Positions 8,703 through 57,061 are shown, counted from the stretch's first letter. The stretch is 64,000 nucleotides of DNA from an uncultured Candidatus Saccharibacteria bacterium (GCA_964460325.1 CAYWPI010000001.1:11105-75104); one strand, 5' to 3'. Made by a program: numbers and translations. Notes: a model not told the origin generated them from the sequence alone.

Positions 8703-8823
8703 GCCAGTTTTCTTTAAATTAATATTTAACTAGAAAATTGAGCACCCCGTGAAATACAAAGTTTATTTCACTGGGGTGGATTCAATCACAAGATGTATTC
8801 CAGCAGTATAAACGAGAATGAAT

Positions 8824-8869
8824 TTTAAAAAAAGACAGCGCCCCGCCACCTCCGAAGAGGGGCGGGGCG
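8824..8869 (-). terminator. Rho-independent terminator of the high-GC cassette gene
   Basis: Hairpin CGCCCCGCC...GGCGGGGCG followed by a T-run on the minus strand. Confidence 0.6.
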
Positions 8870-8894
8870 AGCGGCGACCGCGCAGAGAATCGTG

Positions 8895-9200
8895 TCATCC
8901 CAAGGGAAGGGCACGGAAGAGCTCGGGATTCGAAAGAGCCCAGAGCGTTCCCGCCATGCCCCTCTGCGTCCAGTGGGGACAGACCGGCTTGGAGGGCTCC
9001 TGGCGTATGAGTCGCGAGGAGGTGAACTCACTCTGACGGATCTCGTAGAGGGAAAAGACTCGCTCGGCTCTCCCGGGCTTCGCTTTCTCCGCAGTCCAGC
9101 GCGAAAGTGCGACTGCATCGGATTCAGCCTCGAATTCGATCCGGATTACCGCGGTGCACTTGCCACAGTGATCGATCATGAGCAGGTACTGCATTGGCAC
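8895..9200 (-). CDS. Hypothetical 101-aa protein, high-GC cassette a; possibly YciI-like or Cys-containing
   Basis: Canonical SD GGAGGTG 5 nt before the ATG and its own terminator. Local GC ~60% against a ~45% backbone. Confidence 0.5.
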   Translation of the reverse strand: MPMQYLLMIDHCGKCTAVIRIEFEAESDAVALSRWTAEKAKPGRAERVFSLYEIRQSEFTSSRLIRQEPSKPVCPHWTQRGMAGTLWALSNPELFRALPLG

Positions 9201-9240
9201 CTCCTTGTCGTGACGGCAACCTTGTTATACTCCCGGCGCC

Positions 9241-10614
9241 CTACAGGGTCAATTGCTTATTCAAATATTGATCCAGCTCCGCGATCAACACTCTCTCTTG
9301 CTGCATACTATCCCGGTCACGGACCGTCACAGCCTTATCGTCTATAGAATCAAAATCCACGGTCACGCAAAGCGGTGTGCCGATCTCGTCCTGCCGGCGA
9401 TAACGTTTGCCGATAGACTGCGTTTCATCATATTCACAGACGAATTGCTTTGAAAGATGCGCATAGAGCGGTTTGGCTATCTTTGCAAGCTCGTCCTTTT
9501 TTGAAAGCGGCAAAATGGCAACCTTTACCGGCGCCAACCATTTCGGGAACTTCAAGACGACTCTTGAGTCGTCTTGACCCCGCATAGCCTCCTCAGAGGC
9601 GACGTGGGGTATTCCTTCTTCTGTGTAAGCTTCAAGCAGGGCGACCAAAACCGAACGATCAACACCGAACGAAGGCTCAATAACGTGCGGCAAAAACTTG
9701 CTCTTTTGGTCATCTGGATCGGCATACGTTAAGTCTTGTTTAGAAGCCCCTTGGTGACTCTTTAAATCAAAGTCGCCGCGATAGGCTAAGCCGTACAACT
9801 CTTTGCGGCCAAAAGGATAATCATATTCAATATCCACCGTTCGCTTGGAATAGTGCGCGCGATCTGCATCCGGGATATCAACATAGTGTAACTTATCTGA
9901 GCTGACACCAAGATCATGCAACCATTTTTTCATTTGCATGAGCCAGTGATCAAAGTGCGCCTCCCACTCCTGTTCACGAACAAAATACTCAATCTCCATC
10001 TGCTCGAACTCACGGGTGCGGAAGATGAAGTTACCCGGAGTGATCTCGTTTCGAAACGCCTTTCCGATCTGCGCGATACCAAACGGCAACCGACGACGGG
10101 TCGTATCAAGGATATTCTTAAACTGAACAAACATCGCCTGCGCAGTTTCAGGACGAAAATAAACCGTATTCGCCTTTTCTTCGGCCGGACCAAGAAAGGT
10201 TTTAAGCATTAGGTTGAACTGCTTAGCCTCGGCAAATGAGCTTTTTGCCTTACAGCTCTCGCATGGTCCCTTTGCATCAATCTGATCGGCTCGGAATCGC
10301 GCGTGGCACTTCTTACACTCCACGAGCGGATCGTTAAACGTCGCCAGGTGACCAGAAGCCTCCCACACCTTTGGGTTCATAATAAGCGCCGCATCAATAC
10401 CCACCATATCCGCGCGCTGGCGGACAAAACGGTTCCACCACTCGTCTTTAATGTTCTTCTTCAGCTCCGCGCCAAGCGGACCATAGTCCCAGCTGTTTTG
10501 TAGTCCGCCATATATCTCGCTTCCAGGAAAGATAAAGCCTCTGCGCTTGCAAAGCGAGATTATTTTATCCATTAAGTCCGCGGACTTTACTTTTGATTTT
10601 TTATCATTAACCAT
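9241..10614 (-). CDS. glyQS: Glycyl-tRNA synthetase, class II dimeric type
   Basis: 457 aa. N-terminus MVNDKKSKVKSADLMDKIISLCKRRGFIFPGSEIYGG is typical of GlyRS. Confidence 0.9.
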   Translation of the reverse strand: MVNDKKSKVKSADLMDKIISLCKRRGFIFPGSEIYGGLQNSWDYGPLGAELKKNIKDEWWNRFVRQRADMVGIDAALIMNPKVWEASGHLATFNDPLVECKKCHARFRADQIDAKGPCESCKAKSSFAEAKQFNLMLKTFLGPAEEKANTVYFRPETAQAMFVQFKNILDTTRRRLPFGIAQIGKAFRNEITPGNFIFRTREFEQMEIEYFVREQEWEAHFDHWLMQMKKWLHDLGVSSDKLHYVDIPDADRAHYSKRTVDIEYDYPFGRKELYGLAYRGDFDLKSHQGASKQDLTYADPDDQKSKFLPHVIEPSFGVDRSVLVALLEAYTEEGIPHVASEEAMRGQDDSRVVLKFPKWLAPVKVAILPLSKKDELAKIAKPLYAHLSKQFVCEYDETQSIGKRYRRQDEIGTPLCVTVDFDSIDDKAVTVRDRDSMQQERVLIAELDQYLNKQLTL

Positions 10615-10645
10615 TGGCGTATTTGCTACATGTCACGTGTTATTC

Positions 10646-12962: not shown

Positions 12963-13031
12963 GCCTTCAGCATATCACAGGAGCCAAGTCGCGCATGCGC
13001 AACTTGGCTCCGATATTATACTTCCGCCGCT

Positions 13032-13448
13032 CTAACCGGCAGCGAGTTTGTACGCTCGTTCGCTAACGGCCTGCACCAGTCCTTCACCAACCTGGGATCG
13101 TTCGTATGCCATCTGGCATCCGCACATACAATATTCCCGCCTGACGGCCTCCGTGTCAGAGATGGCAATACGCAAGCAGTCGCGCCCATCCTCCGTATCG
13201 CGACGACACAGCTCCGAAACAAGTCGTAGTGGTGAAGCGCCCTGTACTGATCGCACCTTGTGATCATCGACAACCACAATGTCGCGCCGAGGATCGTGCA
13301 TGCAAAGCAAACGACCCCCTTCAACCGTATCGCTTTCCATAAAAACAAAGTGCTGTCGCGGGAAACGTACACCTAGCAATTCTTCGAGTACCTCACGGAA
13401 AGACTCGGTAAGCCCAATCCAGATGACCGTAATCGCCTTCTTGAGCAT
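13032..13448 (-). CDS. Hypothetical 138-aa protein, high-GC cassette b
   Basis: SD AAGGAGGA upstream of the ATG. High GC. C-terminal CMCGC motif. Confidence 0.45.
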   Translation of the reverse strand: MLKKAITVIWIGLTESFREVLEELLGVRFPRQHFVFMESDTVEGGRLLCMHDPRRDIVVVDDHKVRSVQGASPLRLVSELCRRDTEDGRDCLRIAISDTEAVRREYCMCGCQMAYERSQVGEGLVQAVSERAYKLAAG

Positions 13449-13539
13449 CTCATCCTCCTTGCTTGACGCAAAAAATCCACCGGGAACCGTGTTTGTAGAA
13501 ATACAAGCCTTTTACTAAAAAGTCAAGAAACGGATGGCT

Positions 13540-14058
13540 TTACACTCCCTGCGCCTTTGAGCCACGGGCGCGGCGAATCAGTTCGTCGCGCAGCTGTTCT
13601 GCCTCTGCGCGGGACAAAGCCGGAAGTCTTCCCTCGGCGTGCATACCCGATGTTCCTCGGCGGGTTACAAGGGCGCTTGCGCCGGCTGTTTGAATATGCA
13701 AATCGGAGAGCCCAAGAATGCGAGCCAAGATGCCACGATAGATATCCACATTCTGGATGCGCTCATAAGGAATAGTTACGTAACGCTTATAGATAACGCC
13801 TGATTCTTTCCGAAAGCCATTCTCAGTAAGTTCATAGAGAAAGTAACCATACGAAAGCTTCGCCCAGATCCAGCACAGCGCCAGAACGATAATCAGCATG
13901 GGCCAAAACAGATTGAGTGGAATGCTATAGCCTTGCTCCAAGGCCACGACCGCGACGTCGGCAAGTATCCAAAAACGGACAACCACTAAAAATAGTGTCC
14001 AGCGAAATGCCAGTCTTATGAAAAACAGCCAGAGCGCTTTCGGGTCAAGATGCTTCAT
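13540..14058 (-). CDS. Bacterial PH-domain membrane protein (YdbS/YdbT-like)
   Basis: Two transmembrane helices followed by a bPH_2-like domain. Start chosen at MKHLDPK. Confidence 0.55.
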   Translation of the reverse strand: MKHLDPKALWLFFIRLAFRWTLFLVVVRFWILADVAVVALEQGYSIPLNLFWPMLIIVLALCWIWAKLSYGYFLYELTENGFRKESGVIYKRYVTIPYERIQNVDIYRGILARILGLSDLHIQTAGASALVTRRGTSGMHAEGRLPALSRAEAEQLRDELIRRARGSKAQGV

Positions 14059-14082
14059 GATCTGTGATGTTATGTTTTTATT

Positions 14083-14162
14083 GTGCGGGATATTGAATTT
14101 AGTTCGAACCGTGTTCGCGGCGCCGCCCGCCACCGGCGCACGCGAAGGGCGAACCGGTCTTT
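14083..14162. repeat. IR-A left arm: 80-bp perfect inverted repeat
   Basis: Exact reverse complement of 15258-15337, compared by eye. Confidence 0.85.
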
Positions 14163-14265
14163 AACAATTTCAAGTTGTTTTTTGGCGGCAAATTCTTGAT
14201 TTGATTGTATCCTAATTTGCTGAAAAGAAAAGGAACCCTTAACGATCGCGTACTGCGATGGGTTC

Positions 14266-14670
14266 CTACGGGGGCGTTGCAGCCCCAGCTGAAGACGACA
14301 GAGATGGATTCAGTCGTCGGGTTCGGACGAGAGCGAGCAGCGTCAGTAGCTCTTGCGGAGCAACGTATCCACCAAGTTGCTCCACCATCAGTGCGGCCTT
14401 CTCGATGTCTTCCTTGCTGAACTGGCTGGGCGCTTCGGGTCGCAACTGCTTCGCGATGCCATGAAGAGCGCGAGCGTCTTCTTCTGTCTTCCCGCAAGCC
14501 CTTGCAATGGCCAGCAAGGTCTTCAGACGCGGCACGAGTGTGATCGTCTCCTCGATGCGCCGGATCTGCGAGATCGCGATCTTCGCCTTTTCGGCGAGTT
14601 GCTCGCGACTTAGACCTGCTTCCTTGCGCCAAGCCCGAACGGTCGCGCCGACACCTTGAACTTCGTTCAT
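14266..14670 (-). CDS. XRE-family HTH transcriptional regulator
   Basis: HTH signature LSREQLAEKAKIAISQIRRIE. High GC. Start overlaps the upstream ORF stop (ATGA). Confidence 0.6.
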   Translation of the reverse strand: MNEVQGVGATVRAWRKEAGLSREQLAEKAKIAISQIRRIEETITLVPRLKTLLAIARACGKTEEDARALHGIAKQLRPEAPSQFSKEDIEKAALMVEQLGGYVAPQELLTLLALVRTRRLNPSLSSSAGAATPP

Positions 14671-14850
14671 CCGCGTTTCTCCTGAATGAGCTCGTGAATG
14701 GCGCGGATGGACATCACGATCCAGAATCCGCCGACGCCACCGGCAATCGAAGGAACGATCTTGATTCCGATCGCGTACCCGATCGCAGCTACGGTCAGCA
14801 AGACATACGCACCGATCGTGAAGAGCATGGCTGCTTTAGCGGTTTCCATC
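14667..14850 (-). CDS. Small membrane protein (~60 aa)
   Basis: METAKAAMLFTIGAYVLLTVAAIGYAIG... SD AAGGAGGAG. Translationally coupled by TGATG/ATGA overlaps on both sides. Confidence 0.4.
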
Positions 14851-15093
14851 ACTCCTCCTTCTTCTCGTTCGGACGAACGATGATCATGCTCCCCCCGAAG
14901 CCCAGCTTCCATCCTAGGAGCCAAGCGATGATGAGGATCCCGATCGAGATCCCGATGCCCGGCAGGATCGCAGGACGCCCGACGGCCCACAATGGGACGC
15001 CGAAAGCTCCTGCCCACATCAGCACGAAGAAGATGCGGTAGACGACCGCCTCACGCGGACCGAGCTCGTGCACGGTCAAGTTGGCAGGTCCCA
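14850..15093 (-). CDS. Small membrane protein (~81 aa)
   Basis: MGPANLTVHELG... with two transmembrane segments. First gene of a three-gene minus-strand operon. Confidence 0.35.
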
Positions 15094-15257
15094 TGTGTAC
15101 TCCAAGTGCCACAATTGGCCTGCTGAATATGCCACATCTCAAAATAAAAAGCAAATATAAAACAAAAACAGCCCCTTTGGGCCGTTTCTCAAAAATGTTC
15201 TTTTCTTCTTTCCCTCTGATTCGAGCCGATGGATTTCCGGGCTCTTTGGCGGTTTTG

Positions 15258-15337
15258 AAAGACCGGTTCGCCCTTCGCGTGCGCCGGTGGCGGGCGGCGC
15301 CGCGAACACGGTTCGAACTAAATTCAATATCCCGCAC
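15258..15337. repeat. IR-A right arm
   Basis: Reverse complement of 14083-14162. Confidence 0.85.
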
Positions 15338-15406
15338 AAGTCAGAAGATGTCAACGCCTCGCGCCGACTTTGTCGGCGCTCGGCGAGCTGTTGGTACGGC
15401 GGTTTC
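15334..15406. repeat. IR-B left arm: 73-bp perfect inverted repeat, abutting IR-A
   Basis: Exact reverse complement of 16845-16917. Shares GCAC with the end of IR-A. Confidence 0.85.
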
Positions 15407-15449
15407 TCTTAGGGAAAGAAGAAAAGAACATTTTTGAGTTAAATCTCAT

Positions 15450-17255
15450 ATGAAATACATACTGTACGCAAGAAAATCAACAGAAGAAGACGACAGACAA
15501 GTCTTGAGTATTCAGGCGCAACTCGCAGAGTTGCGAGAATTTGCCGCCAAAGAACACCTTGAAATTGTTGCTTCCTTTCAGGAAGCCAAAACCGCCAAAG
15601 AGCCCGGGCGAATTAAATTCGCAGAAATGGTGGCAATGATTGAATCCAAGAAAGCAGACGGAATCATAAGCTGGCACCCCGATCGTCTTGCTCGCAATTC
15701 CGTAGATGGAGGCAAGATTATTCATTTGATCGATCGCGGCTTGATCAAGTCATTAAAATTTCCCACCTTCTGGTTTGAGGCCACCCCACAAGGTGTGTTC
15801 ATGCTCAATATCGCCTTTGGACAGAGTAAATATTTTGTAGATAATTTGCGAGAGAATGTGAAGCGGGGACTACGACAGAAGATCAGAAACGGCATCTGGC
15901 CTGGCTGGGCTCCGGTGGGGTATATTAATAATCCACGAACGCGAGATATTGATGTTGATAGTGAAAAAGCTCCAAAAGTGAAGAAGTTGTTTGAGATGTA
16001 CGCCACCGGAGCATACACACTAAGTTCTCTCGCAAATTGGTGCGTGGAAAATAATCTCAAGGGCAACAGGGAGAAGAAAATATCAATCAGCAATCTGCAG
16101 AGTATTCTACAAAATATTTTCTACGTTGGCCTCATGAGATATCGTGGGGAAATTTTCGAAGGCAAGCACGAGCCACTCATCTCAAAGAAACTTTTTGATG
16201 AAGTCCAAAAAGCGATGAAAAACCGAGGAAAACAGAAACACGTTCGTAAACATCACTTTGCTTTTCTTGGCCTACTCAAATGCGCTTCGTGCGGTTGCTC
16301 CATCACCGGCGAACGTCAGAAGGGTCACAACTATTATCGCTGCACCAAAAAGAAAGGCCCATGCCAAGAAAAGCATTATCTTCGAGAAGAAGATTTATTA
16401 GCTCAAATCAAAAGCATTCTTCAAAAAGTTTCTTTGGGAAGCCACGACACTGAAAGAGTTTTGGCGGCGCTCGCAGGCGAGGAGGCGGAGGCAAAAGAAT
16501 ACTCTCAAAATGAAGTAGGGTTATTAAAATCAAAACTGACAGAAATAGAAGCCAAACTCTCCCGCCTCCTCGACCTGTATCTTGCGAGCGAAATATCCCT
16601 TAGCAAAGAGGAGTTCGCCGCCAAAAAAGAAAGCCTTGTCTTGCAAAAGGCAGAATTAGCTCAGAAAATTAATGATATTGAGCAAAAAGGAGTGTCGTGG
16701 CTCGAACCGGCTCGTGAGTTCGTTCTATCCTTGAATCAAGCCGCGAAACTGCTTGAGAATGGGAACCCAGAATCATTGCCACCATTTCTCAAAGCCATCG
16801 GCTCGAACCACACCCTTCAAAACCGACAAGTCGGTTTTGAGCTGAAACCGCCGTACCAACAGCTCGCCGAGCGCCGACAAAGTCGGCGCGAGGCGTTGAC
16901 ATCTTCTGACTTGTGCCCGGGACAGGAGTCGAACCTGCATGCCTTGCGGCGCTACCACCTCAAGGTAGTGCGTCTGCCATTTCGCCACCCGGGCAAACTT
17001 GCATTAACAATCTCGACGCTTGCAATACAAGGTCGGGACTCCGACCCGGTCATAGCGTCGGATCTGACAACTAATAACTTACAACAAGCAACAAGAACTT
17101 TCAAATCAAAACCGCCCTTGCGGGCGGCAATGAGTTATTTTTCTTTTGTGTCAGCCTCTTTTGCTTCAGCCGGCTTGGTGGCTGCCTTTTTGTCGTTACC
17201 ACGCTCAGCAGACATCTTACGACGAATCGCCTTCCTGCTAATATCTCGGATGTAA
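15450..17255 (+). CDS. Large serine recombinase; the ORF has no in-frame stop and reads through IR-B and tRNA-Leu, so it may be a pseudogene or carry a non-native 3' end
   Basis: YARKST catalytic-serine motif at the N-terminus, resolvase domain, recombinase domain, zinc ribbon CASCGCS...YYRC and a coiled coil. The native end is probably near ~16845. Confidence 0.75.
   Translation: MKYILYARKSTEEDDRQVLSIQAQLAELREFAAKEHLEIVASFQEAKTAKEPGRIKFAEMVAMIESKKADGIISWHPDRLARNSVDGGKIIHLIDRGLIKSLKFPTFWFEATPQGVFMLNIAFGQSKYFVDNLRENVKRGLRQKIRNGIWPGWAPVGYINNPRTRDIDVDSEKAPKVKKLFEMYATGAYTLSSLANWCVENNLKGNREKKISISNLQSILQNIFYVGLMRYRGEIFEGKHEPLISKKLFDEVQKAMKNRGKQKHVRKHHFAFLGLLKCASCGCSITGERQKGHNYYRCTKKKGPCQEKHYLREEDLLAQIKSILQKVSLGSHDTERVLAALAGEEAEAKEYSQNEVGLLKSKLTEIEAKLSRLLDLYLASEISLSKEEFAAKKESLVLQKAELAQKINDIEQKGVSWLEPAREFVLSLNQAAKLLENGNPESLPPFLKAIGSNHTLQNRQVGFELKPPYQQLAERRQSRREALTSSDLCPGQESNLHALRRYHLKVVRLPFRHPGKLALTISTLAIQGRDSDPVIASDLTTNNLQQATRTFKSKPPLRAAMSYFSFVSASFASAGLVAAFLSLPRSADILRRIAFLLISRM
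16845..16917. repeat. IR-B right arm; its last 4 nt overlap the 3' end of tRNA-Leu
   Basis: Reverse complement of 15334-15406. Confidence 0.85.
16914..16994 (-). tRNA. tRNA-Leu(GAG)
   Basis: Manual fold: acceptor GCCCGGG, anticodon loop TTGAGGT, long variable arm, T-loop GGTTCGACTCC. Confidence 0.8.
17100..17128 (-). terminator. rplS terminator
   Basis: Hairpin CCGCCCTTGCGGGCGG followed by a T-run on the minus strand. Confidence 0.55.
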
Positions 17256-21603: not shown

Positions 21604-21640
21604 AAAATGAGTTGGGGGTCGGCGCCTGTGCACCGACCCC
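21604..21640 (-). terminator. Terminator of cassette d
   Basis: Hairpin GGGGTCGG...CCGACCCC followed by a T-run on the minus strand. Confidence 0.45.
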
Positions 21641-21657
21641 ACACACGAGCACCGCGT

Positions 21658-21990
21658 TTAGCTCGCCCGGCGAGCCAAACGCTTTTGCGCTCGACGAGAC
21701 TTTCGCTCCCGATGAAGCTTCCGCAACCGCACAAGCGCCCGGCGATGACGCTTCGCGCGCCGGTATCGCTTGCGAGGATCGCTCTTTTTCAGGGTCGCAG
21801 CCGGTGCCACGCGCCAATCGAAGAACCGCAACTTCCCCTGCTCGTATCGGGCATTGCCCTCCACGAGCTCATTCTTGGAAGGGAACCAGCCGCGTCGTTG
21901 GTCGATCAGCAGCGCCACGTCGCCACTTGGAACCAACTGCACAGTACCACTTGCTCCGTCGACCACTCGAGCCCACTGCCGTTGACTCAT
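21658..21990 (-). CDS. Hypothetical ~110-aa protein with an Arg/Lys-rich C-terminal tail, high-GC cassette d
   Basis: SD GGAGGTGG before MSQRQW. High GC. Own terminator. Confidence 0.4.
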   Translation of the reverse strand: MSQRQWARVVDGASGTVQLVPSGDVALLIDQRRGWFPSKNELVEGNARYEQGKLRFFDWRVAPAATLKKSDPRKRYRRAKRHRRALVRLRKLHRERKSRRAQKRLARRAS

Positions 21991-22087
21991 ACCACCTCCT
22001 TCATCTGGTATGCGTTCCCGTCGATCTGACGGAGTCACACCACCTCTTTTAAGTAATAGCAAAAGAAGAGCGGTCTGTAAATTATGG

Positions 22088-22253: not shown

Positions 22254-22325
22254 TGCGCGCTGGAGGGATTGAACCTCCGACCTTTTCAATGTCAATGAAA
22301 CGCTCTACCACTGAGCTAAGCGCGC
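22254..22325 (-). tRNA. tRNA-Val(GAC)
   Basis: Manual fold: GCGCGCT acceptor, loop TTGACAT, T-arm GGAGGTTCAATCCCTCC. Confidence 0.8.
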
Positions 22326-26130: not shown

Positions 26131-26206
26131 GTTCCAATATTATCACAACTCGCTGTACTTCAAAATCTCACGTAACTTCTTACATCGTATGTAATAAGTT
26201 ACTACT

Positions 26207-48640: not shown

Positions 48641-48871
48641 TTATCGATCCTCAATGTGCTTCTTCCCCCAATGCACCCGGTTCCAGATACGCTCATGGAT
48701 ATAATAAGCAACAAGCCCGACAAAGAAAATGGTAATACTGAAGCGCAAAGACTGCGCAACATCACGTGTTTCGTAATACAAGATGCAAAAACTGATGACT
48801 GAAGCGATTATCTTCCAACTGAAAGCTTTGAGTATGGAACGGCCGTGGCTCTCAAGAAAACGGTGAAACAT
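48641..48871 (-). CDS. Small membrane protein
   Basis: 76-aa hydrophobic ORF. Confidence 0.3.
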   Translation of the reverse strand: MFHRFLESHGRSILKAFSWKIIASVISFCILYYETRDVAQSLRFSITIFFVGLVAYYIHERIWNRVHWGKKHIEDR

Positions 48872-49149: not shown

Positions 49150-49252
49150 CTACTAATAATAACAGAAATAAGCGGTTAATTAAATAAAAACGCTTTCTGT
49201 GGGGTTGATGAGCGAAGTGGCTTGCACTGAGCAAGCGAAGCGAGTCGAAGTG

Positions 49253-49323
49253 TGGACCTAGCCGGAATCGAACCGGCACTTCGTCCATGCCATGGACGCA
49301 CACTACCACTATGTTATAGGCCC
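49253..49323 (-). tRNA. tRNA-Ala(GGC)
   Basis: Manual fold: G3:U70 identity pair, loop ATGGCAT, T-loop GGTTCGATTCC. Confidence 0.75.
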
Positions 49324-49578
49324 ATTAAATTAAACTCACACAATCTAATCGAATAACCTGAATAGTATCATATATTCCTCATAAATTTTCAACTCACTCG
49401 ATTTCACTCAATAAAACAATGCATTAAGGCGCAATGAGTTTAATTATTAGAAAATAAATTATAATTTCGTCAACTTGGCAGAATATAATAGATTATGCAA
49501 AGATAATAAAAGAACCGGGCCGGTAAACCGCCAGCCCAAAACGTACATGGGGTAACCACCCCAGAAGGAGTATCCCCC

Positions 49579-50223
49579 ATGTCAGAGAAGATGAGCAGTT
49601 GGCAACTCCCGATCTTCACGTTCGTTATCCTGGCAATCGGAATCATGCTCGGCGTGATGATCACCGCCACCGAGTACAATCCGAACGCTCCCAAGCGGTT
49701 CACCCCCGGCGCCAAGCCCGTGCCGACCACTGCGACAGACTACGGCGCGTTCCTGATCGCAGATTATGACGAGCAGGGGCCCGGCAAACCGTCGTGGCAC
49801 CGCGCTCGCGTGGCCGGCGTGCCAGCGTGGACGCACGAGGAGGCAGACAACCACTTCAGGCGCGACGATCCGAACGTGATGATCCTCGAGGAAGAATGGG
49901 TAAGACGCTTTGGCTACCAAGCAGAGCTCAAGGATATCAAGGCTGCGCCATCGTGCTGTATCCCGAATGGGAAGCTCGTCGACGAGAACAGCCGAGACTT
50001 CATCATCGAATTTGAGGTTCGCCCGTCCATCGAAGAGGCGGCCCCTGCTCCAGAATACGTCGGAGACGCACCGCCTGCAGAATTCCGTGAGGTCGGAACT
50101 GGCAAAACACTGAATCCGATCGAGGAGCTCGAAGAGAAATTGAGGAGCGAGGGGTGGACAATCACCCGCAATCCCCCCGACGATTCCGAGAGTGCCGACT
50201 CAACAGCCGAAGATGGGCCCTAA
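49579..50223 (+). CDS. Hypothetical membrane-anchored 214-aa protein, high-GC cassette g
   Basis: SD GAAGGAG. Single N-terminal transmembrane segment. High GC. Own terminator. Preceded by a ~200-nt extremely AT-rich tract. Confidence 0.45.
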   Translation: MSEKMSSWQLPIFTFVILAIGIMLGVMITATEYNPNAPKRFTPGAKPVPTTATDYGAFLIADYDEQGPGKPSWHRARVAGVPAWTHEEADNHFRRDDPNVMILEEEWVRRFGYQAELKDIKAAPSCCIPNGKLVDENSRDFIIEFEVRPSIEEAAPAPEYVGDAPPAEFREVGTGKTLNPIEELEEKLRSEGWTITRNPPDDSESADSTAEDGP

Positions 50224-50242
50224 CGCCCATCTCAACGCACAA

Positions 50243-50280
50243 CGCCCCGCGAGGTCTTCCTCGCGGGGCGCGTTCTTTTT
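50243..50280 (+). terminator. Terminator of cassette g
   Basis: Hairpin CGCCCCGCGAGG...CCTCGCGGGGCG followed by TTCTTTTT. Confidence 0.65.
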
Positions 50281-50544: not shown

Positions 50545-53500
50545 TTAGTACCCTGCTGACTTAATAATACTCTCCGCTGTCTCATTCGCCGGGCACCTGA
50601 AGCTTTTTGAACCACCACATTTAGTACAATCAACCACTACAACCGGGAGCTGTGTGCAAGTAGCGCCAGCGGTCGCTGGATTATATGTTGCACGTCCTCG
50701 TTCATCAAGAGCATCTGCCAGACCGGGAGTGTATGGGATACCGCGCGAACGCAAAGTCGAGGCAAAATTTTTACATATTGTACATGTTCCCGGCTTCGCT
50801 GGTATATTACCAAACTCACCACCCCTCCCATATATTGTTATCGCACACTTACAACCAGCTCCAACGACCGGTGATGATTGCACAGGAGGCTGCTCTAAGC
50901 AACCACACTTCCCATCTGGCATTACTCCACAACGCCCACCCGCAGAAGTACACTTTTTCTGAGTACAGATTGAATTCTTTGCATTCCTATACTCCGGGGT
51001 CTTTATCGCCTCAGAAATCGGGACACCACCCCACGTCATGTTGCCCGCTCGATCCAGAACGATACCCATTTCATCCGCCTTAACTTCACAGCCTATAGGA
51101 TATTTTAACGACGTTGAAGGCGGTTGCAGTGGCGACTTCGGCTCCCGATAAGGAGTTGTCGGACTTTTAGTTTGCGGAGTTGTAGCTGGACTTCCTCCCG
51201 TCGAACCACCATCTGGCGTGACCGGAGGTTGTGTTGCTGGCGGCGGCGGACTACCACAGGCACATCCATCGCCACTCACAGTTGACTGACAAATACCAGC
51301 GGTACAATTAAGACCCTTCTTTGAACAGGCTGCGCTCGGCGAAACTCCGCCACAATCACCCCATGTTTCTTCAATGGAAATTAAGAAATTAATTTGCGTC
51401 TGAGTTAATCCGGCATCCTCTCCGTTCTCAGTTATTTGCTCTGGAGATGGACAGTTCCCTTTATCGTGGGGGACAAGTTTATCAATAAACTCTTGAGCCC
51501 GCTGAACATTCTCAGGTGAGTATCTAAGACAAGTGTTTACTTTCTCGCCAATCACACCCGGATCAATAACACCAGGGAAGTCAAACGGTTCATCTAAACC
51601 AAGCGGAGGCAAATCAGTTGGCTCACTAGGCTCTGGGGATACAAATGGCGGGTATTCTTCTCCATCCGAAATTTCTGGATCGGCAGGATTGACCGCAGGA
51701 ATATCAGGGAATTCAGAAGAATCAGGCGGTGTTAATGGCGCGCACATACATCCACCGCCGGCACTATTACTGCAAGACCCACCGGATTTGGCACAACTCC
51801 CAGAACATTCTCCCGTCGAACCCTTGCCAGTAACCCAATTCAATAATCTTTCCCAGAAGGTTGTATCATGACACGTATCTCCCGGCTCAAGCACAGGTGC
51901 AGCTGTCGGCGCATCGACTACAGGGGGTTGAGAGTCGTCATTTGAATCTGGCGAGGCGGTCGGGGCAGTAGGGGCTGAAGCTGGCGCAGCTGATCCGTTA
52001 CAGCTGCATGTAATAACATATTTCCCGTTTTGCAAAGTTGGTGATGACGGCGCACACTTCCCAGCAGAACAAGCCTTTGTATCTGTTGAACAAACAGCAC
52101 CTAATGCACCAGAGGCTATATTATCTGCAACAGCCTCTTTTTCCTTTTCCAAACGCTGAGTTTCACTGTTTAAATTCGTAACAAGGCTTGGCACCTGATT
52201 CCTTGCAACCTCAAGCCCACGATTATAATCACCGTTGCCGAGTTGAGTTATTTGTTGATTAATACTAGTAATTGATGCCGTAATTTGATTGAGAAGGTTT
52301 AATTGCTCATCAAGTTTTGCATTACCAACCCGAGTACAAGAACCCGCTTTGTCAGTTCCAACAACAGGCGGAACGGTAGGCACAACAGGAATCGGGGCAG
52401 GTTCGGTCGGTGTTACTGGTACAACAGGAGCAACTGGTTGCTCGCCAGTTGATTGCGGTACTGCTCCTGCTGGCACATTGCCATCACTAGCTCTATCAGG
52501 CGTAGAACCACCACAGCATTCAATTGAATACTGCAAATAACCACTTGCGGTCGTCCGCTTTACCAATACAGCTGGCCCACACTGACCACCTCCAGAGCAT
52601 TGTGCCGCTGGATCGCCGCCGCACATAAAATCTTTCGCGCTCGCCAACGCCTTCACGAGATTGTCATAAGTTGGTTTTATTCTCTGCGCAGCAAACCGCG
52701 CCTGCTCATCAGCTGACATCGACTGGCTTTTTTCACCTAAATACTGATAAAGCGCATTGAGCTCTAATAATGGATCAGTTACTGAAGGTGTAATTGTTTT
52801 TTGACACACTCTGGGCGCAGTTATATTCAAATCAGCACCTTCGGGATTCTGCGGAAGCCCGTCATTATTCCCGAAAATAGTCCCAAACACCTTCGCGCGA
52901 AATGCCGCTGCAAACTTTGATGGAAGGCTTAATATGCTGTCAGATGCTGATGCCGGAGCATCAGCCCCGCTACCACTACCCGCACCAGTCGATCCACCAG
53001 TGCCGGGAGTTGAACCACCTCCGCTAGTACCACCAGACCCAGCCGAACCTCCGTCTTTTACGGAATTCGTAATCCCGCACGCCATAGTCCAGTTGTAATT
53101 CACCTCAACCGCCGCCTCAACATTAACAGTAATCTTAACTGAATCACCCGAACCGCTCTGCTTAGCCTGTGTAACATACGCACCTTCATCACTCGAATCA
53201 TCCCCAGTATAAGTGCAGGCACCAATACTATATGTTAACTCCGTACCACACGGCTTACAGTTAGTCTCCTTCCCGTCATTGGGACACGAAACATCACAGG
53301 CGATAATCTTATTTTTTGCAGCACTCTCTGCATTAGCATTTGCACTCTCACAAGCCGACTTCTGCGCCGCTTCAAGCATTTCTCGAAACTCCCCTTGTAC
53401 GCGATTAATAAATTGCACACCATTTTCATATTGAGTCGTTTTGTTTGCACACTCAGTTCTGCAACTGATAATTGGGTAGGTAGACTGAGGACCGGCAACA

Positions 53501-55023
53501 TTTTCACATACAGTATACGCATCTTCACAAGCACCTGTTCCATGAGTAAGCGTCTGCGAAGCGCTGCCTGACCCCGTTACTGATTCAGCATTGCTTCCAG
53601 TCTTTGTTGTCGCAGGGCATGATGGCCCTTGAGTTGGCTCTGGCACTGGCGAACCAGTCACCTCCTGACATCCACAGGTCGGCACGGTAACTGCCTCATA
53701 TCCTCCCGTATCACCGCCAACCCACCGCCGATCTGATTGAGTTCCCGCAACACAGGTTCCCGCCGCACCACTAGAGGTGGTGCACTCGCCGCCACACTCA
53801 GAACGCTGAGCACACTCATCTCCACCACCAGTTGCCGTTGTGCCACTCGGAAGTTCACTGTCGGGCTTGCCACCAAACACATCATCGAAAAAGGAGGTAA
53901 TGTTTCGTAAAACATTCACGATGCCGTTGGTCACCACGCTAAGAGCGGTTGTGCGAGCATCAGGAACCGTAAAAACACCAACCTGGGTCTCAAGGTCAAC
54001 ACGACCCAACACATTATTGGCTGTCTTCACTGCAATTTCATCAATCAAATCACCCGCTTTTGTAACATGCAGCTCGGTAATGGTTCCTGTTTGAGTTTCG
54101 GCAAAAACTTGTTCCCCAGAAATAGTGGCAAAAACTTGTTCCCCAGAAATAATACGCGGAGCCACTTGGAAAGGAACACAATCAGAGCCGCATGCTTGCT
54201 GATCAGCATAAGCTTCTGCGGTTGTGGGCAATAAGATAACCTGCAACCTTTGTCCACTTACGGGATCCACGGTTTGCGTGTCTGCCGTTACCACATTCGT
54301 TGTTTGAGCGGGCACCCAAATCTGCAAAGCTGATTTCACTTGTGGAACAGAGGCGGCGGGAGCAGTTGTTACGCGTTGACCGGTTCCTGCATCTGCCGTT
54401 GGCTGCCTATCAATCACCGGTTCAGTTGTTACCCCGCTGGGAAGTTGCGGATCAGAAACAATGGGCGGCAGAGGATCTATAAGCGCTTGAATATTAGGAA
54501 CTTCCACAATTTTCGTCGCTCCGCCGGACACCGCCGAACCGCTCATCCACGCATCGATAAGACTTTTTGCATTTGCCCCCGGATCATATGGCTGGGTAAC
54601 AATACCCGCACCAGATCCCTTCGAATTACTAGGTGGTGTCACTGTTGAACCAGAGCCACCGGCTTGAGTTGCTCCTCCATCGTTACCTGTTACGTTTTGC
54701 GAACCAGAGCCTGATGGCTGAGTATAGCTTGGAAGGTCAGGCGTGAAATGAGGAAGAATCGGCTCTACTTCGAAATAAATACCACCCGGCTCTTGATCAT
54801 TTTTTCGTTCTTCATAAAAACTAGTTCCACTGGTATCCGCCATGTTGCCTCCCGCTCCGCCTTGATACACTTGAGCCAGCTGACTTGAGCCAACGATATC
54901 GGCCGGAATCACTGGGAGCATTCCCGTGACCAAAGCGAGTGCCGCAACCGGAAGCACAAGTCGAACAATATGTCGCATCATTGATATGTAAATAAAGTGT
55001 AAAGATAAAGAAGAGCTCCTCAA
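50545..55023 (-). CDS. Giant secreted Cys-, Gly- and Thr-rich surface protein (1492 aa)
   Basis: Signal peptide or N-terminal transmembrane segment. Numerous Cys-rich segments. Internal 27-nt perfect tandem duplication at ~54098-54151 (ISGEQVFA x2). Confidence 0.65.
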   Translation of the reverse strand: MRSSSLSLHFIYISMMRHIVRLVLPVAALALVTGMLPVIPADIVGSSQLAQVYQGGAGGNMADTSGTSFYEERKNDQEPGGIYFEVEPILPHFTPDLPSYTQPSGSGSQNVTGNDGGATQAGGSGSTVTPPSNSKGSGAGIVTQPYDPGANAKSLIDAWMSGSAVSGGATKIVEVPNIQALIDPLPPIVSDPQLPSGVTTEPVIDRQPTADAGTGQRVTTAPAASVPQVKSALQIWVPAQTTNVVTADTQTVDPVSGQRLQVILLPTTAEAYADQQACGSDCVPFQVAPRIISGEQVFATISGEQVFAETQTGTITELHVTKAGDLIDEIAVKTANNVLGRVDLETQVGVFTVPDARTTALSVVTNGIVNVLRNITSFFDDVFGGKPDSELPSGTTATGGGDECAQRSECGGECTTSSGAAGTCVAGTQSDRRWVGGDTGGYEAVTVPTCGCQEVTGSPVPEPTQGPSCPATTKTGSNAESVTGSGSASQTLTHGTGACEDAYTVCENVAGPQSTYPIISCRTECANKTTQYENGVQFINRVQGEFREMLEAAQKSACESANANAESAAKNKIIACDVSCPNDGKETNCKPCGTELTYSIGACTYTGDDSSDEGAYVTQAKQSGSGDSVKITVNVEAAVEVNYNWTMACGITNSVKDGGSAGSGGTSGGGSTPGTGGSTGAGSGSGADAPASASDSILSLPSKFAAAFRAKVFGTIFGNNDGLPQNPEGADLNITAPRVCQKTITPSVTDPLLELNALYQYLGEKSQSMSADEQARFAAQRIKPTYDNLVKALASAKDFMCGGDPAAQCSGGGQCGPAVLVKRTTASGYLQYSIECCGGSTPDRASDGNVPAGAVPQSTGEQPVAPVVPVTPTEPAPIPVVPTVPPVVGTDKAGSCTRVGNAKLDEQLNLLNQITASITSINQQITQLGNGDYNRGLEVARNQVPSLVTNLNSETQRLEKEKEAVADNIASGALGAVCSTDTKACSAGKCAPSSPTLQNGKYVITCSCNGSAAPASAPTAPTASPDSNDDSQPPVVDAPTAAPVLEPGDTCHDTTFWERLLNWVTGKGSTGECSGSCAKSGGSCSNSAGGGCMCAPLTPPDSSEFPDIPAVNPADPEISDGEEYPPFVSPEPSEPTDLPPLGLDEPFDFPGVIDPGVIGEKVNTCLRYSPENVQRAQEFIDKLVPHDKGNCPSPEQITENGEDAGLTQTQINFLISIEETWGDCGGVSPSAACSKKGLNCTAGICQSTVSGDGCACGSPPPPATQPPVTPDGGSTGGSPATTPQTKSPTTPYREPKSPLQPPSTSLKYPIGCEVKADEMGIVLDRAGNMTWGGVPISEAIKTPEYRNAKNSICTQKKCTSAGGRCGVMPDGKCGCLEQPPVQSSPVVGAGCKCAITIYGRGGEFGNIPAKPGTCTICKNFASTLRSRGIPYTPGLADALDERGRATYNPATAGATCTQLPVVVVDCTKCGGSKSFRCPANETAESIIKSAGY

Positions 55024-55251: not shown

Positions 55252-55253
55252 AT

Positions 55254-55714: not shown

Positions 55715-55786
55715 GCCCTCGTAGCTCAATGGATAGAGCTACTCCGTCCTAAGGAGAAGATAACTGTTCGATTCAGTTCGAGGGCA
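55715..55786 (+). tRNA. tRNA-Arg(CCT)
   Basis: Manual fold: GCCCTCG acceptor, loop GTCCTAA, T-arm AACTGTTCGATTCAGTT. Confidence 0.75.
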
Positions 55787-55914
55787 CCCATAGCTCAAAG
55801 CTGATGCCTCCTGGGTCGGCTTTCTCACCTTGCGTTGAAGTAGATGAGAGCTGCCCCGCCCTAAGGCACACCTGACTGCTCAAATCAAGTCCAGAAACAC
55901 AGAAAGAATCGTCT

Positions 55915-55955
55915 TAAAGCAAAATAGTTACGGCGGCCTCAAAATGAGGCCGCCG
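55915..55955 (-). terminator. Terminator of cassette h
   Basis: 10-bp hairpin CGGCGGCCTC...GAGGCCGCCG followed by a T-run on the minus strand. Confidence 0.55.
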
Positions 55956-55971
55956 GAAGACACTTCCCGAA

Positions 55972-56190
55972 TTAATCCGGGATTGCGGCTGCTTTCGGAA
56001 TCCAGCGCATGACCGCGCCAGGATGATTATCATAACGAATCCCGAAATGCTTGGGAGCTACTGCGACGACTCTGGCTCTTCCTCCCGCCCACAAACCATC
56101 GGGATGCTCCCTCACCGTTACATGGTCGTGAAGAACAACGTCAAACTGAAACCGAAACACGAGCTGAACTTCCTTTGTCCTGCTTTCCAT
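55972..56190 (-). CDS. Hypothetical ~72-aa protein, high-GC cassette h
   Basis: SD GGAGGATGA before MESRTKEV. High GC. Own terminator. Abuts the truncated 3' end of the pyruvate-kinase-like gene. Confidence 0.3.
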   Translation of the reverse strand: MESRTKEVQLVFRFQFDVVLHDHVTVREHPDGLWAGGRARVVAVAPKHFGIRYDNHPGAVMRWIPKAAAIPD

Positions 56191-56260
56191 TACCTCATCC
56201 TCCAGTGGCCTGACCTGAATGTATCGAAATGTTCGCCTTAAATCAACCACCTTCGTCTTG

Positions 56261-57061
56261 TTAACCCAACACCCGCACGCGGCGCTTCCCTTCATGTCGC
56301 TCCGCCTCACTGACAATCTTCTCCATTATGGTTACCGCCTCAACTGGATACTTGCCACGTGCCGTCTCTTCTGAAAGCATTACGCCATCTGCGCCACCTA
56401 AAATCGCATACGCGACATCCGAAACCTCCGCTCGAGTCGGCGCCGGATTTTCCACCATTGAAAGCAACATCTGCGTGGCGACAATAACAGGCTTCTTGGC
56501 CTTATGCGCGGTCTTAATTATGCGCTGTTGAGCAAACGGAATTGTTTCAAGCGGAATTTCATTCCCCAAATCGCCACGGGCCACCATCACCGCATCACTC
56601 GCTTTTATAATTGCCCGCAAGTCATCAAGCGCCGCCTGCCGCTCTATCTTGGCGATAATGGGAATGCGCACTCCCCGCTTTTTCATTTCCGCCCGAAGCA
56701 ATTCAATGTCCCGCGCACTGCCCACATACGACATTGCCACATAATCAACCTTATGCGCCACGCCAAAATCAAGATCGGCCAAATCTTTTTGCGTTAAAAT
56801 CGCGTCACCGCCTTTAAAATGATGCCCACCAGCGTCTTGCATACGCGGCCCAGACAAGTCCTGTATAATTGGAATGCGCCTGCCCGCATCTTCAGCCGCT
56901 TGTCGGATAGTTTTAATATAATGCGCATGTTCTTCATACGTCCCCCAGGAAAAGTTAAGTCGCGCCACATCCATCTGATGCGCGACAAGCAGACGCATTA
57001 CTTCAATATGCTGCGTGGCAGGACCGATCGTCGCAATGATTTGAGCCGCTGAATGTTTCAT
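56261..57061 (-). CDS. Pyruvate-kinase-like protein, barrel (A) domain only, lacking the B and C domains
   Basis: PK motifs MVARGDLG and MLSEETA. Only 266 aa. Confidence 0.65.

Follow-up and report, generated by a model that had tools for sequence, protein, structure and literature searches.

The GC-rich gene units scattered through a 64,000-nt stretch of bacterial DNA (referred to as the window) are probably horizontally acquired accessory genes, which occupy a few hypervariable hotspots of insertion in a conserved CPR backbone. Most of these hotspots lie immediately 3' of a tRNA gene (tRNA-Leu(gag), tRNA-Val(gac), tRNA-Ile(gat) and tRNA-Leu(caa)), and the units most likely come from a mobile gene pool among CPR bacteria, unsampled and richer in GC, rather than from a sampled cellular high-GC donor. 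The window itself appears to be a conserved stretch of chromosome from a Parcubacteria/Paceibacteria-type (CPR) bacterium, and its gene order (M16-GlyRS-h572-RecO-tRNA-Leu(gag)-…-RluA-tRNA-Val(gac)-…-SHMT-tRNA-Ile(gat)) is common to about 30 related Parcubacteria genomes.

Composition, translation signals and terminators

The initial annotation described eight islands (referred to as c1 to c8) of ~58–63% GC on a ~45% backbone. The GC content computed over the whole window is instead 48.6%, and five of the eight islands fall within the proposed range, namely c1 (8895–9200, GC 0.60), c4 (21658–21990, 0.62), c5 (26288–27595, 0.59), c6 (35247–35645, 0.59) and c7 (49579–50223, 0.59), whilst c2 (13032–13448, 0.54), c3 (14163–15257, 0.55) and c8 (55972–56190, 0.525) lie below it. 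Third-position GC (GC3) is a better discriminator of the cassettes than overall GC. Host genes have a GC3 of 0.487±0.043 with a maximum of 0.55 (n=45 in the window), against 0.64–0.80 (z 3.5–7.4) for the six outlying islands: c1 (0.72), the c3 genes (0.64–0.80), c4 (0.66), c5 (0.68), c6 (0.80) and c7 (0.72). GC3 is host-like in c2 (0.55, z 1.4) and in c8 (0.51, z 0.5), and the latter, in which the C-fraction of NNY codons is 0.26, does not belong to the GC-rich class. The codon usage of the cassettes is foreign to the host, with marked differences for ATC (0.82 vs 0.29), TAC (0.79 vs 0.18), TTC (0.79 vs 0.24) and AAG (0.85 vs 0.45), and with an NNY C-fraction of 0.60–1.0 compared to a host maximum of 0.55.

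A canonical Shine-Dalgarno (SD) sequence precedes seven of the eight islands but only one of ~45 host genes, enolase (57070–58314), in agreement with the earlier observation that host genes mostly lack one. GGAGG or AGGAG is located 4–8 nt ahead of the start of c1, c2, c3a, c3b, c4, c6, c7 and c8; the exception to the SD attributed to every island is the patatin gene c5, which has no canonical SD upstream of its start. SD and GC3-outlier status are associated (Fisher p=4.5e-6) in a table that took c3x, which has a GGAG core only, as SD-led, and the association is weaker once c3x is left out. The two traits are separable, because c5 has only the GC-richness and c2 and c8 only the SD. About a third of host genes carry a −10-like box 6–11 nt before the ATG, and many look leaderless. 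In a survey, SD-led ORFs in GC islands reached 32% vs 13–24% for compositional control motifs, a modest excess that was not replicated in a second, phylogenetically mixed genome set; an enrichment only modestly above controls counts against the acquisition reading.

The strong GC-rich terminator ascribed to each unit is found 3' of c1, c3, c5, c6, c7 and c8 as a hairpin followed by a T-run, whereas c4 has a strong hairpin with a weak T-run and c2 an imperfect hairpin only. These downstream hairpins are unrelated terminators with T-runs, and all-against-all comparison (blastn-short) of the cassettes with 150–250 nt flanks gave chance matches of 11–13 nt only. The suggested attC-like boundary motif is therefore not borne out, and neither is a single cassette family, as the units share no protein or DNA similarity and c2 and c8 are not compositional outliers.

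Insertion sites and the recombinase islet

Five of the eight islands were said to lie within ~300 nt of a tRNA gene, and the measured distances are 263 nt for c4 (tRNA-Val), 278 nt for c5 (tRNA-Ile), 161 nt for c6 (tRNA-Leu(caa)), 256 nt for c7 (tRNA-Ala) and 184 nt for c8 (tRNA-Arg). Such proximity is unlikely by chance, with a binomial probability of ~5e-4 (about 10% of the window being ≤300 nt from a tRNA), or ~4e-3 with intergenic regions alone counted. c4, c5 and c6 are 3' of their tRNAs and share their orientation, c8 is 3' of tRNA-Arg and c7 5' of tRNA-Ala. The recombinase islet directly adjoins tRNA-Leu(gag), and c1 has no tRNA neighbour.

Four of the insertions (c1, the c2-c3-recombinase islet, c4 and c5) sit exactly at junctions that are empty (≤98 nt) in some relatives. 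The M16|GlyRS gap, the site of c1, spans −17 to +98 nt in 10 of 11 relatives vs 538 nt in the window; the RecO|tRNA-Leu(gag) junction is 63 nt in L042, 3950 nt in the window and up to 5.3 kb elsewhere; the RluA|tRNA-Val(gac) gap at the c4 site is 3–9 nt in L016, L017, L025 and L036 vs 677 nt; and the SHMT|tRNA-Ile(gat) gap at the c5 site is 46 nt in L007 vs 1742 nt. In further relatives these junctions reach 1.3–5.3 kb, with non-homologous content that is often SD-led and GC-rich. Together with the foreign codon usage, the empty junctions uphold the earlier proposal of repeated acquisition of self-contained units. The relatives compared are distant, with core proteins 36–84% identical (for the closest, 59% for the best TopA and 44–46% for DUF4012), and at such distance gain in the window lineage and loss elsewhere cannot be separated for any single site.

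The minus-strand unit c1 (8827–9206) consists of an SD (AAGGAGG, 9200–9206), a coding sequence for a 99-aa ORFan singleton (8895–9194) and a terminator hairpin with T-run (8827–8869), inserted between the M16 peptidase and GlyRS genes. c4 (21615–22000, minus strand) has its SD (AGGAGG) at 21995–22000, a coding sequence at 21658–21990 for a 110-aa protein with an Arg-rich tail, and a hairpin at 21615–21640. c5 (26209–27595, minus strand; terminator 26209–26255) encodes a divergent patatin-like phospholipase, and its product (26288–27595) matches PF01734 with E=2e-19 and 70.9 bits (gathering cut-off 27.7); its similarity to anti-phage phospholipase effectors is weak and confined to the N-terminus. 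c7 (49515–50278, plus strand), which is divergent from tRNA-Ala(ggc) (49252–49323), combines a structured leader (49515–49563), an SD at ~49565–49570, a coding sequence (49579–50223) for a 214-aa ORFan with an N-terminal TM helix and an acidic domain, and a terminator (50243–50270) with T-run. c8 (55928–56205, minus strand) is an SD-led 72-aa gene (55972–56190) with a hairpin at 55928–55958, between a pyruvate-kinase-like gene and tRNA-Arg(cct).

The tRNA scan and repeat comparison also located degenerate tRNA-Val-like fragments (22108–22258) following tRNA-Val(gac) (22253–22325) and duplicated 5' fragments (27962–28058) upstream of tRNA-Ile(gat) (27873–27945), both on the minus strand. Part of the tRNA-Ile 3' end (11 nt) recurs 128 nt downstream, and other tRNA-end repeats nearby are short and weak. 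A search of the distal cassette ends found no att-type repeats duplicating the tRNA. c1, c4, c5, c6 and c7 have neither an integrase nor a transposase beside them, nor any att-type direct repeats, and c8 has no integrase or recombinase; the absence at c1 and c4–c7 would count against acquisition.

The RecO to tRNA-Leu(gag) islet (12963–16912) measures 3950 nt and contains c2, a bPH_2 gene, the inverted repeat (IR)-bounded c3 segment and a large serine recombinase. c2 (13032–13448, minus strand) is an SD-led 138-aa ORFan singleton of marginally atypical composition. Homologues of c2 and of the bPH gene are absent from the relatives' gaps. The arms of IR-A (87 nt, 98% complementary; 14081–14167 and 15253–15339) enclose the c3 operon with its terminator (14223–15094, minus strand), delineated by ORFs, profile matches and GC3. 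As originally annotated, the segment contains three genes, which encode an 81-aa membrane protein (14849–15094, GC3 0.80), a 60-aa membrane protein (14667–14849, GC3 0.69) and an XRE-type HTH protein (14266–14670, GC3 0.64), followed by the terminator hairpin (14223–14267). The right arm of IR-A abuts the left arm of IR-B (15334–15406; the two span 15253–15406), whose right arm (16844–16916; 73 nt, 100%) is at the 3' end of the recombinase gene.

The recombinase (15450–16916, plus strand; phrog_95 integrase, E=8e-80) has host-like GC, and its ORF continues through the antisense of tRNA-Leu(gag) (16913–16994, minus strand), the hotspot anchor conserved in the relatives' gene order. It lies at one end of the islet, the only unit with such a gene, and is the sole recombinase among the scanned ORFs (part of the long ORFs). 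The enzyme is 75% identical to one beside tRNA-Leu(gag) in L029, in which the flanking core proteins are just 38–60% identical; by this protein comparison, the recombinase is mobile. L029 has the same double inverted-repeat architecture with different cargo, and a Logan unitig (L090, 1155 nt) stops at the inverted repeats of the c3 segment.

Conservation of the whole c6 unit across genomes

c6 (35157–35699, plus strand) follows tRNA-Leu(caa) (35003–35086, plus strand) and comprises a −35 element (35157–35162), a −10 element (35180–35187), a 5' stem-loop (35195–35215), an SD (GAGGAGG, 35235–35241), a 132-aa coding sequence (35247–35645) and a terminator (35666–35699). The whole unit, from promoter to terminator, is conserved in 7 other contigs and the 5' hairpin shows covariation, so the notion that the cassettes are promoter-less fails at least for c6. 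The protein evolves with a dN/dS of 0.08–0.48 at a synonymous divergence at or near saturation (dS 0.6–2.2). c6 is the only cassette family with relatives, 8 among 5.8e9 proteins, which are found in different contexts with a flank/backbone GC of 0.34–0.50, the longer contigs bearing CPR-type genes; the contig of L088 begins at the gene, with no upstream flank, and that of L173 has a 35-nt downstream stub only. Of the eight loci (the window counted), four follow tRNA-Leu(caa) and one follows tRNA-Arg(tct). The ParB-tRNA-Leu(caa) pair is conserved in L131, L091 and L103 with another gene after the tRNA.

The family has a gene GC of 0.52–0.59 and a GC3 of 0.61–0.80, and in L087 the c6 copy (GC3 0.73) resides among host genes of 0.24–0.26. 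Enrichment is restricted to third positions: first- and second-position GC match the host, and the promoter and UTR conserved with the gene are rich in AT (GC 0.32–0.46). Selection acting on the coding region would account for this pattern no less well than a GC-rich donor genome does.

Source, alternative explanations and relation to known systems

The earlier suggestion of a high-GC donor, such as an actinobacterial host, found no candidate. Direct recent capture from one high-GC cellular donor, for example the host organism of an episymbiont, is a rather improbable account, even though the cassettes favour the codons of a moderately GC-rich, SD-using bacterium (AAG, GAG, ATC, TTC, TAC and CTC/CTG), DprA is present, and the window's hotspot insertions are nearly all GC-rich, unlike the relatives' hotspot gaps, whose average GC is about equal to the backbone, a hint that the source may be lineage-specific. 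Had a sampled high-GC lineage donated the DNA recently, clear homologues would be expected, yet c4 returned only itself in an exhaustive HMMER search of 1.84e9 representatives, c7 likewise gave only a self-match, c5 has no relative at E<1e-10 (best plasmid-collection matches 26–27% identical), each cassette protein is a singleton when 15e9 sequences are grouped at 90% identity, and the c6 relatives whose flanks can be read (all except L088) are without exception in AT-richer DNA. Phage, plasmid and IMG/VR searches for any cassette were negative or remote and gave no donor or mobile element, a failure that would also weigh against acquisition. An assembly chimera or contamination, raised at the outset and consistent with the sharp compositional boundaries, can be given almost no credence. 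A second assembly (Logan, SRR15237813) is 99.99% identical over 25214–36909, including both boundaries of c5 and c6, and the c5 junctions are reproduced in L089; the c1, c2, c3a, c3b and c7 proteins are recorded in NCBI as well as in Logan assemblies (c4 in NCBI only; the exact c8 sequence is not in the protein collection checked). In addition, the cassettes fit intergenic slots precisely, with the terminator facing the next host promoter, and the same hotspots hold analogous islets in ~30 unrelated MAGs.

Selection offers another route to the same composition. The units may be accessory genes resident in CPR genomes, with G/C-ending codons and an SD kept by selection or GC-biased gene conversion rather than left over from a donor, an explanation we regard as unlikely. 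On this view a class of small genes would have an expression regime of its own, leadered and SD-dependent. It accounts for a c6 GC3 of 0.61–0.80 in hosts of ~0.25–0.5 despite the near-saturated dS, for the third-position-only enrichment beside an AT-rich promoter and UTR, and for two syntenic genes, one in L071 and one in L077, which lie between tRNA-Ile and tRNA-Val and are only 34% identical yet both have a GC3 of 0.90–0.97. The 5' stem-loop, strong SD and strong terminator resemble the design of a stable, well-translated mRNA, and the host ribosome can use an SD, since native SD-led genes exist (enolase in the window, HU in L001). However, these same native genes have host-like GC3, SD and GC-richness are separable, the junctions show turnover, being empty in some relatives and filled with non-homologous content in others, and translational selection is weak in the clade, as EF-Tu and ribosomal proteins of 7 relatives show a GC3 shift of at most ~+0.07. 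The EF-Tu and ribosomal protein codon data largely refute the narrower proposal of highly expressed native genes with codon bias and SD due to translational optimisation only, which is very improbable. C-ending NNY codons are a classic signature of translational selection, and in Patescibacteria the ribosomal proteins, tuf and groS are picked out by island predictors that work on composition (PMC12455944), but EF-Tu of the relatives has an NNY C-fraction of 0.36–0.59 with GC3 raised by 0.01–0.07, the ribosomal proteins show no shift, enolase and peroxiredoxin of the window have host-like codon composition, the AAG/GAG preference is no expression signature, and the cassette genes are absent from the relatives.

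Published context comes from a survey of 125 aquifer Patescibacteria genomes, in which HGT contributed up to 13% of genome length and most individual transfers were from Patescibacteria to Patescibacteria (PMC12455944). As to mechanism, likely insertion machinery remains at one hotspot, where the large serine recombinase abuts tRNA-Leu(gag) beside the IR-bounded cargo c3. The recombinase-less units probably either arrived through a recombinase acting in trans, or entered by homologous recombination of conserved flanks after DNA uptake (DprA), or are what is left of decayed elements. Because a unit brings its own expression signals (promoter and 5' stabilising stem-loop established for c6 only, SD and intrinsic terminator in most units), it would be expressible at any landing site and would leave its neighbours undisturbed. 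Translation of the units is leadered and SD-dependent and favours G/C-ending codons, whereas most core genes of the host lack an SD, are often leaderless and favour A/T-ending codons.

Overall, self-contained accessory units at HGT hotspots are of a kind already known, here tiny, GC-rich and SD-led. Classical tRNA-associated genomic islands are a known class and are usually AT-richer than their host. Like these, and like the chromosomal HGT hotspots reportedly described by Oliveira et al. in Nat Commun in 2017, the window has accessory genes in a few core intervals, many at or beside tRNA 3' ends, with atypical composition, content that varies among (distant) relatives, empty sites in some, and one interval with a site-specific recombinase next to a tRNA. 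The units differ in being tiny (0.4–1.7 kb, mostly one gene), GC-richer than the host, mostly without integrase or recognisable att repeats, and SD-led in an SD-less/leaderless core genome. Phage 'morons', reportedly introduced by Juhala, Hendrix and colleagues in 2000, follow the same logic of autonomous expression, each being a single extra gene with its own promoter, terminator and a composition unlike its neighbours; c6 is the clearest parallel, and most other units have terminators. Unlike morons, the units are outside any prophage, among GlyRS, RecO, RluA, SHMT, ParB and tRNA genes, and PHROGs matches in the window were limited to HTH regulators and the recombinase, with no phage carrying the units found.

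Integron gene cassettes are likewise small, mostly single-gene and ORFan-rich, but this identity was rejected: the window has no attC-like boundary, IntI, attI or tandem array, its only recombinase among the scanned ORFs is of the serine type, the units are scattered among housekeeping genes across 47 kb, and c6 brings a promoter of its own. The c3 segment (1.1 kb within 87-nt IRs) beside a serine recombinase gene that is itself within 73-nt IRs next to a tRNA, a layout repeated in L029, resembles serine-invertase and large-serine-recombinase modules. It differs from Hin/Gin-type segments in that its IRs far exceed hix/gix-type sites in length and show no sequence conservation between the window and L029, and in that the enzyme belongs to the large (integrase-type) class.

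A more speculative reading, to which we attach little probability, is that Paceibacteria-type CPR bacteria maintain two expression regimes. One would be that of a core genome without SDs or leaders and biased to A/T-ending codons; in the other, tiny, self-contained, SD-led units with G/C-ending codons would circulate with their composition actively maintained, not inherited from a donor, and be slotted beside tRNAs by a dedicated system, the recombinase with its IR-bounded exchangeable cargo in the window and L029. If true, this would amount to a cassette-exchange platform that is functionally analogous to integrons yet unrelated to them.

Variable junctions in a conserved backbone

The window has a GC content of 48.6% and ten dispersed tRNA genes, and its gene set (including LeuRS, MetRS, GlyRS, RecO, FolD, SHMT, DprA, TopA, RelA/SpoT, ParB, enolase and a DUF4012 protein) comprises housekeeping genes of the kind usual in CPR bacteria. 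Relatives of the DUF4012 protein come from MAGs labelled Harrisonbacteria, Paceibacteria, Colwellbacteria, Jorgensenbacteria and similar; its top match reaches just 44–46% identity and that of TopA in metagenomes 59%, and the lineage is therefore poorly sampled.

LeuRS (380–3301, minus strand) contains a serine-hydrolase/alpha-beta-hydrolase domain (PF06821, residues 264–411, E=5.5e-15) inserted between its catalytic and editing parts. A giant secreted protein of 1492 aa (50545–55023, minus strand), rich in Cys, Gly, Ser, Thr and Pro, has an inverted codon-position composition (GC2 0.55, GC3 0.37). Closely upstream of a 701-aa ORF (60757–62862), a candidate AdoCbl riboswitch (62788–62956, minus strand) covers the full Rfam model with a sub-threshold score (38 bits, E=0.002; gathering score 50).

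The gene order M16 peptidase-GlyRS-h572-RecO-tRNA-Leu(gag)-h130-GT4-DUF4012-RluA-tRNA-Val(gac)…FolD-SHMT-tRNA-Ile(gat) is common to around 30 DUF4012-anchored relatives, a set that serves for comparing the junctions that hold c1 to c5 in the window and does not reach the c7 and c8 sites. The variable junctions in this backbone are exactly those filled by cassettes in the window (the islands are numbered c1–c8, of which c3 is a three-gene segment, c3a, c3b and c3x, and c5 encodes a patatin). The M16/GlyRS gap measures −17 to +98 nt in 10 of 11 relatives (at most 1268 nt, with three Shine-Dalgarno (SD)-led ORFs, in contig L007) and 538 nt in the window, where it holds c1. Between RecO and tRNA-Leu(gag), relatives range from 63 nt (L042) to 5.3 kb, and the 3950 nt of the window contain c2, a bPH_2 gene, c3 and a serine recombinase. 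The RluA/tRNA-Val(gac) gap is 3–9 nt in four relatives, up to 3 kb in others and 677 nt in the window, with c4, and the SHMT/tRNA-Ile(gat) gap extends from 46 nt (L007) to 2.5 kb, with 1742 nt and the patatin c5 in the window.

Junction occupants vary by genome and none is homologous to those of the window, but several are likewise small, SD-led, GC-rich and located 3' of the same tRNAs (L010 6764–7111; L033 8591–9091; L032 7032–7340; L029 8483–8881). A further such pair, with one copy in each of two syntenic genomes (L071 13013–13357 and L077 13774–14262; GC3, the GC content of third codon positions, 0.90 and 0.97), is flanked by tRNA-Ile(gat) and tRNA-Val(gac); its copies are 34% identical, compared with mostly 60–88% in tblastx segments along the loci. 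The ParB-tRNA-Leu(caa) arrangement is kept in the nearest TopA relatives, with another gene 3' of the tRNA. The proximity to tRNA genes described for five islands in the initial annotation holds, at distances of 161–278 nt. On this comparative sequence evidence, the variable junctions are hotspots of horizontal gene transfer (HGT) and the cassettes accessory insertions.

Survey-wide statistics provide weaker support than synteny. Across 1.12 Mb from DUF4012-anchored relatives, GC islands make up 9.8% of the sequence and contain 32% of the SD-led ORFs, compared with 13–24% for composition-matched control motifs; the enrichment was not replicated in a phylogenetically mixed TopA set, and in small-sample subsets spurious ORFs in DNA of high GC act as a confounder. 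Proximity to tRNA genes in relatives (7 of 26 against 4.0 expected) gave P=0.10.

Partial tRNA copies occur at several sites. A degenerate tRNA-Val-like copy (22108–22258) lies between tRNA-Val and c4, and duplicated 5' fragments of tRNA-Ile (27962–28058; 19 nt, 100%) lie upstream of tRNA-Ile. Several exact part-copies of 18–21 nt surround tRNA-Thr(tgt) (63804–63877) over 63404–63984, including a 19-nt direct repeat of its 3' end (63966–63984); these look like an att-type scar or a further hotspot at the window edge, and a weak Rfam match to a tmRNA 3' end (63653–63670) is probably one of these fragments.

The recombinase islet at tRNA-Leu(gag)

The c3 segment (14168–15252) contains three co-oriented genes, in agreement with the initial annotation, and is flanked by 87-nt inverted repeats of 98% identity. 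It adjoins a large serine recombinase gene bounded by perfect 73-nt inverted repeats, the distal of which abuts the 3' end of tRNA-Leu(gag). The recombinase ORF (15450–17255, plus strand) remains open across the antisense of this tRNA (16913–16994, minus strand), as does its counterpart in the related contig L029 (2240–3835); in both, the read-through adds around 100 residues past the region matching the integrase profile.

The double inverted-repeat layout recurs in L029, likewise at tRNA-Leu(gag), and the L029 recombinase is 75% identical to that of the window, compared with 38–60% for flanking core proteins. Its islet cargo is different and not GC-rich, and a more distant recombinase occupies the same position in a third contig, L027. 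An independent unitig stops at the inverted repeats of the c3 segment, and either orientation fits. Based on these sequence features, the islet resembles a mobile element that targets tRNA-Leu(gag), by an insertion mechanism that we infer, with cargo that may be exchangeable or invertible.

The nested inverted repeats span 14081–16916 in the window and 683–3745 in L029, with conserved architecture but not conserved repeat sequence. Short inverted copies of the recombinase 5' region lie within the ends of the c3 segment (14163–14196, 15188–15215 and 15237–15257), and L029 also carries a C-terminal recombinase fragment (139–702). Truncated N-terminal fragments of about 120 aa, 71% identical to the window recombinase, are found in two IMG/VR contigs predicted to be viral (L174 60–410 and L175 4–354), where they adjoin transposase or zinc-ribbon-like genes.

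Composition and expression signals of the cassettes

The GC contents of the c1–c8 intervals are 0.60, 0.54, 0.55, 0.62, 0.59, 0.59, 0.59 and 0.525 against 0.486 for the window, although GC3 is the cleaner measure of island composition. Host GC3 is 0.487±0.043 with a maximum of 0.55 (45 genes), whereas it reaches 0.72 in c1 (8895–9194), 0.64–0.80 in the c3 genes, 0.66 in c4 (21658–21990), 0.68 in c5, 0.80 in c6 (35247–35645) and 0.72 in c7 (49579–50223), corresponding to z scores of 3.5–7.4. The proposed enrichment is thus uneven: these six are outliers, but c2 (0.55) and c8 (0.51) lie within the range of the 45 host genes. Cassettes differ strongly from host genes in their codon fractions (ATC 0.82 vs 0.29; TAC 0.79 vs 0.18; TTC 0.79 vs 0.24; AAG 0.85 vs 0.45; CTC+CTG 0.66 vs 0.28), and the C-fraction of NNY codons is 0.60–1.0 in cassettes and ≤0.55 in host genes.

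A GGAGG/AGGAG motif lies 4–8 nt 5' of the start in c1, c2, c3a, c3b, c4, c6, c7 and c8. The contrast drawn earlier between SD-led cassettes and host genes mostly lacking such motifs therefore stands except for the c5 patatin start, which has none, and for enolase, the sole host gene start with one. SD presence is strongly associated with GC3-outlier status (Fisher p=4.5e-6, counting c3x, with a GGAG core only, as SD-led). In about one third of host genes a −10-like hexamer ends 6–11 nt 5' of the ATG, which suggests that leaderless or near-leaderless mRNAs are the norm for core genes; starts with a TATAAT-like box and no SD include those of 56261–57061, 48641–48871, 24910–26130 and 59581–60585. 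GC-rich hairpin terminators follow most cassettes, although not every one as had been proposed.

The cassettes have no mutual protein or DNA similarity and no common boundary motif when all are compared; they therefore form a class by architecture and not by sequence, and they are not an integron-like family. An XRE-type HTH (c3a) and the divergent patatin (c5) are the only domains identified by search, an Rfam scan finds only tRNAs in or near the islands, and whole-island RNA folding is unremarkable for c1 and only moderately favourable for c4. All cassette proteins found in the collection are singletons or near-singletons at 90% identity, and the exact c8 sequence is absent from it. c7 matches only itself among 5.8e9 clusters, as does c4 in an exhaustive HMMER scan of 1.84e9 representatives, and c5 has no match below E=1e-10.

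Only the c6 family has relatives, eight in number with 55–69% identity. Where their contigs are long enough, CPR-type genes are present (among them sortase, RNase Y, Obg and sugar epimerases); the backbone or flank GC is 0.34–0.50 except in L088 (which begins at the gene) and L173 (with only a 35-nt downstream stub). The c6 gene is always GC-richer (GC 0.52–0.59, GC3 0.61–0.80), most extremely in L087, with a GC3 of 0.73 against 0.24–0.26 in neighbouring genes. Homology reaches past the coding sequence: the −35/−10 promoter, the SD, the terminator hairpin and a leader some 55 nt long are all conserved. c6, at least, is not promoter-less. The 5' stem-loop of the leader has compensatory changes in 3 of 8 pairs, and a dN/dS of 0.08–0.48 shows the predicted protein to be under purifying selection.

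The genomic context of c6 varies: the gene lies 3' of tRNA-Leu(caa) in the window and L173, of a partial tRNA in L171 and of tRNA-Arg(tct) in L001. In L004 tRNA-Leu(caa), the tRNA that precedes c6 in the window, lies 1.4 kb upstream of the gene and is followed by a compound islet (3541–5399) made up of a low-GC GIY-YIG gene (GC3 0.28), a 52-aa ORF, another GC-rich SD-led gene (4265–4636, GC3 0.85) and then the c6 homologue.

Origin of the cassettes and implications

High expression cannot explain the cassette composition: in seven relatives EF-Tu has only a modest rise in C-ending NNY codons and a GC3 increase of 0.01–0.07, ribosomal proteins show no shift, and the enolase and peroxiredoxin of the window have host-like codon use. 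A chimeric or contaminated assembly, raised in the initial annotation, is unlikely in view of a second assembly that is 99.99% identical over 25214–36909, including both boundaries of c5 and c6, and of analogous islets at the same junctions in unrelated MAGs. Acquisition from a high-GC donor, possibly a host organism, is not demonstrable; since the proteins are ORFans or limited to CPR-like contigs, a sampled cellular donor lacks support. A less likely reading is that selection or biased gene conversion keeps GC3 high. The c6 pattern fits it: GC3 alone is elevated while GC1 and GC2 stay at host levels, the promoter and leader that are conserved and travel with the gene are AT-rich, and the enrichment persists in very AT-rich hosts.

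The overall pattern initially described is real and statistically solid, and the best interpretation is that the units are accessory genes gained by HGT, which bring expression signals of their own and occupy mostly tRNA-flanking hotspots of a conserved CPR backbone.

The genomes of CPR/Patescibacteria are very small and streamlined, and to our knowledge the ways in which they acquire new functions are poorly understood. Earlier work has described HGT and genomic islands in Patescibacteria (PMC12455944); new here are the map of hotspots at fine scale, the difference between accessory and core genes in SD and codon use, and the recombinase module bounded by inverted repeats. The backbone map reveals a handful of precisely defined junctions that are empty or occupied depending on the genome, one of which still houses a mobile serine recombinase. 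Because core genes mostly lack an SD and look leaderless, a strong SD together with G/C-ending codons is a practical marker of accessory genes in these genomes, of use when calling genes, detecting HGT or choosing expression signals in genetic tools for CPR bacteria. Should the composition turn out to be selected and not inherited, this would suggest that accessory genes have a translation regime of their own.
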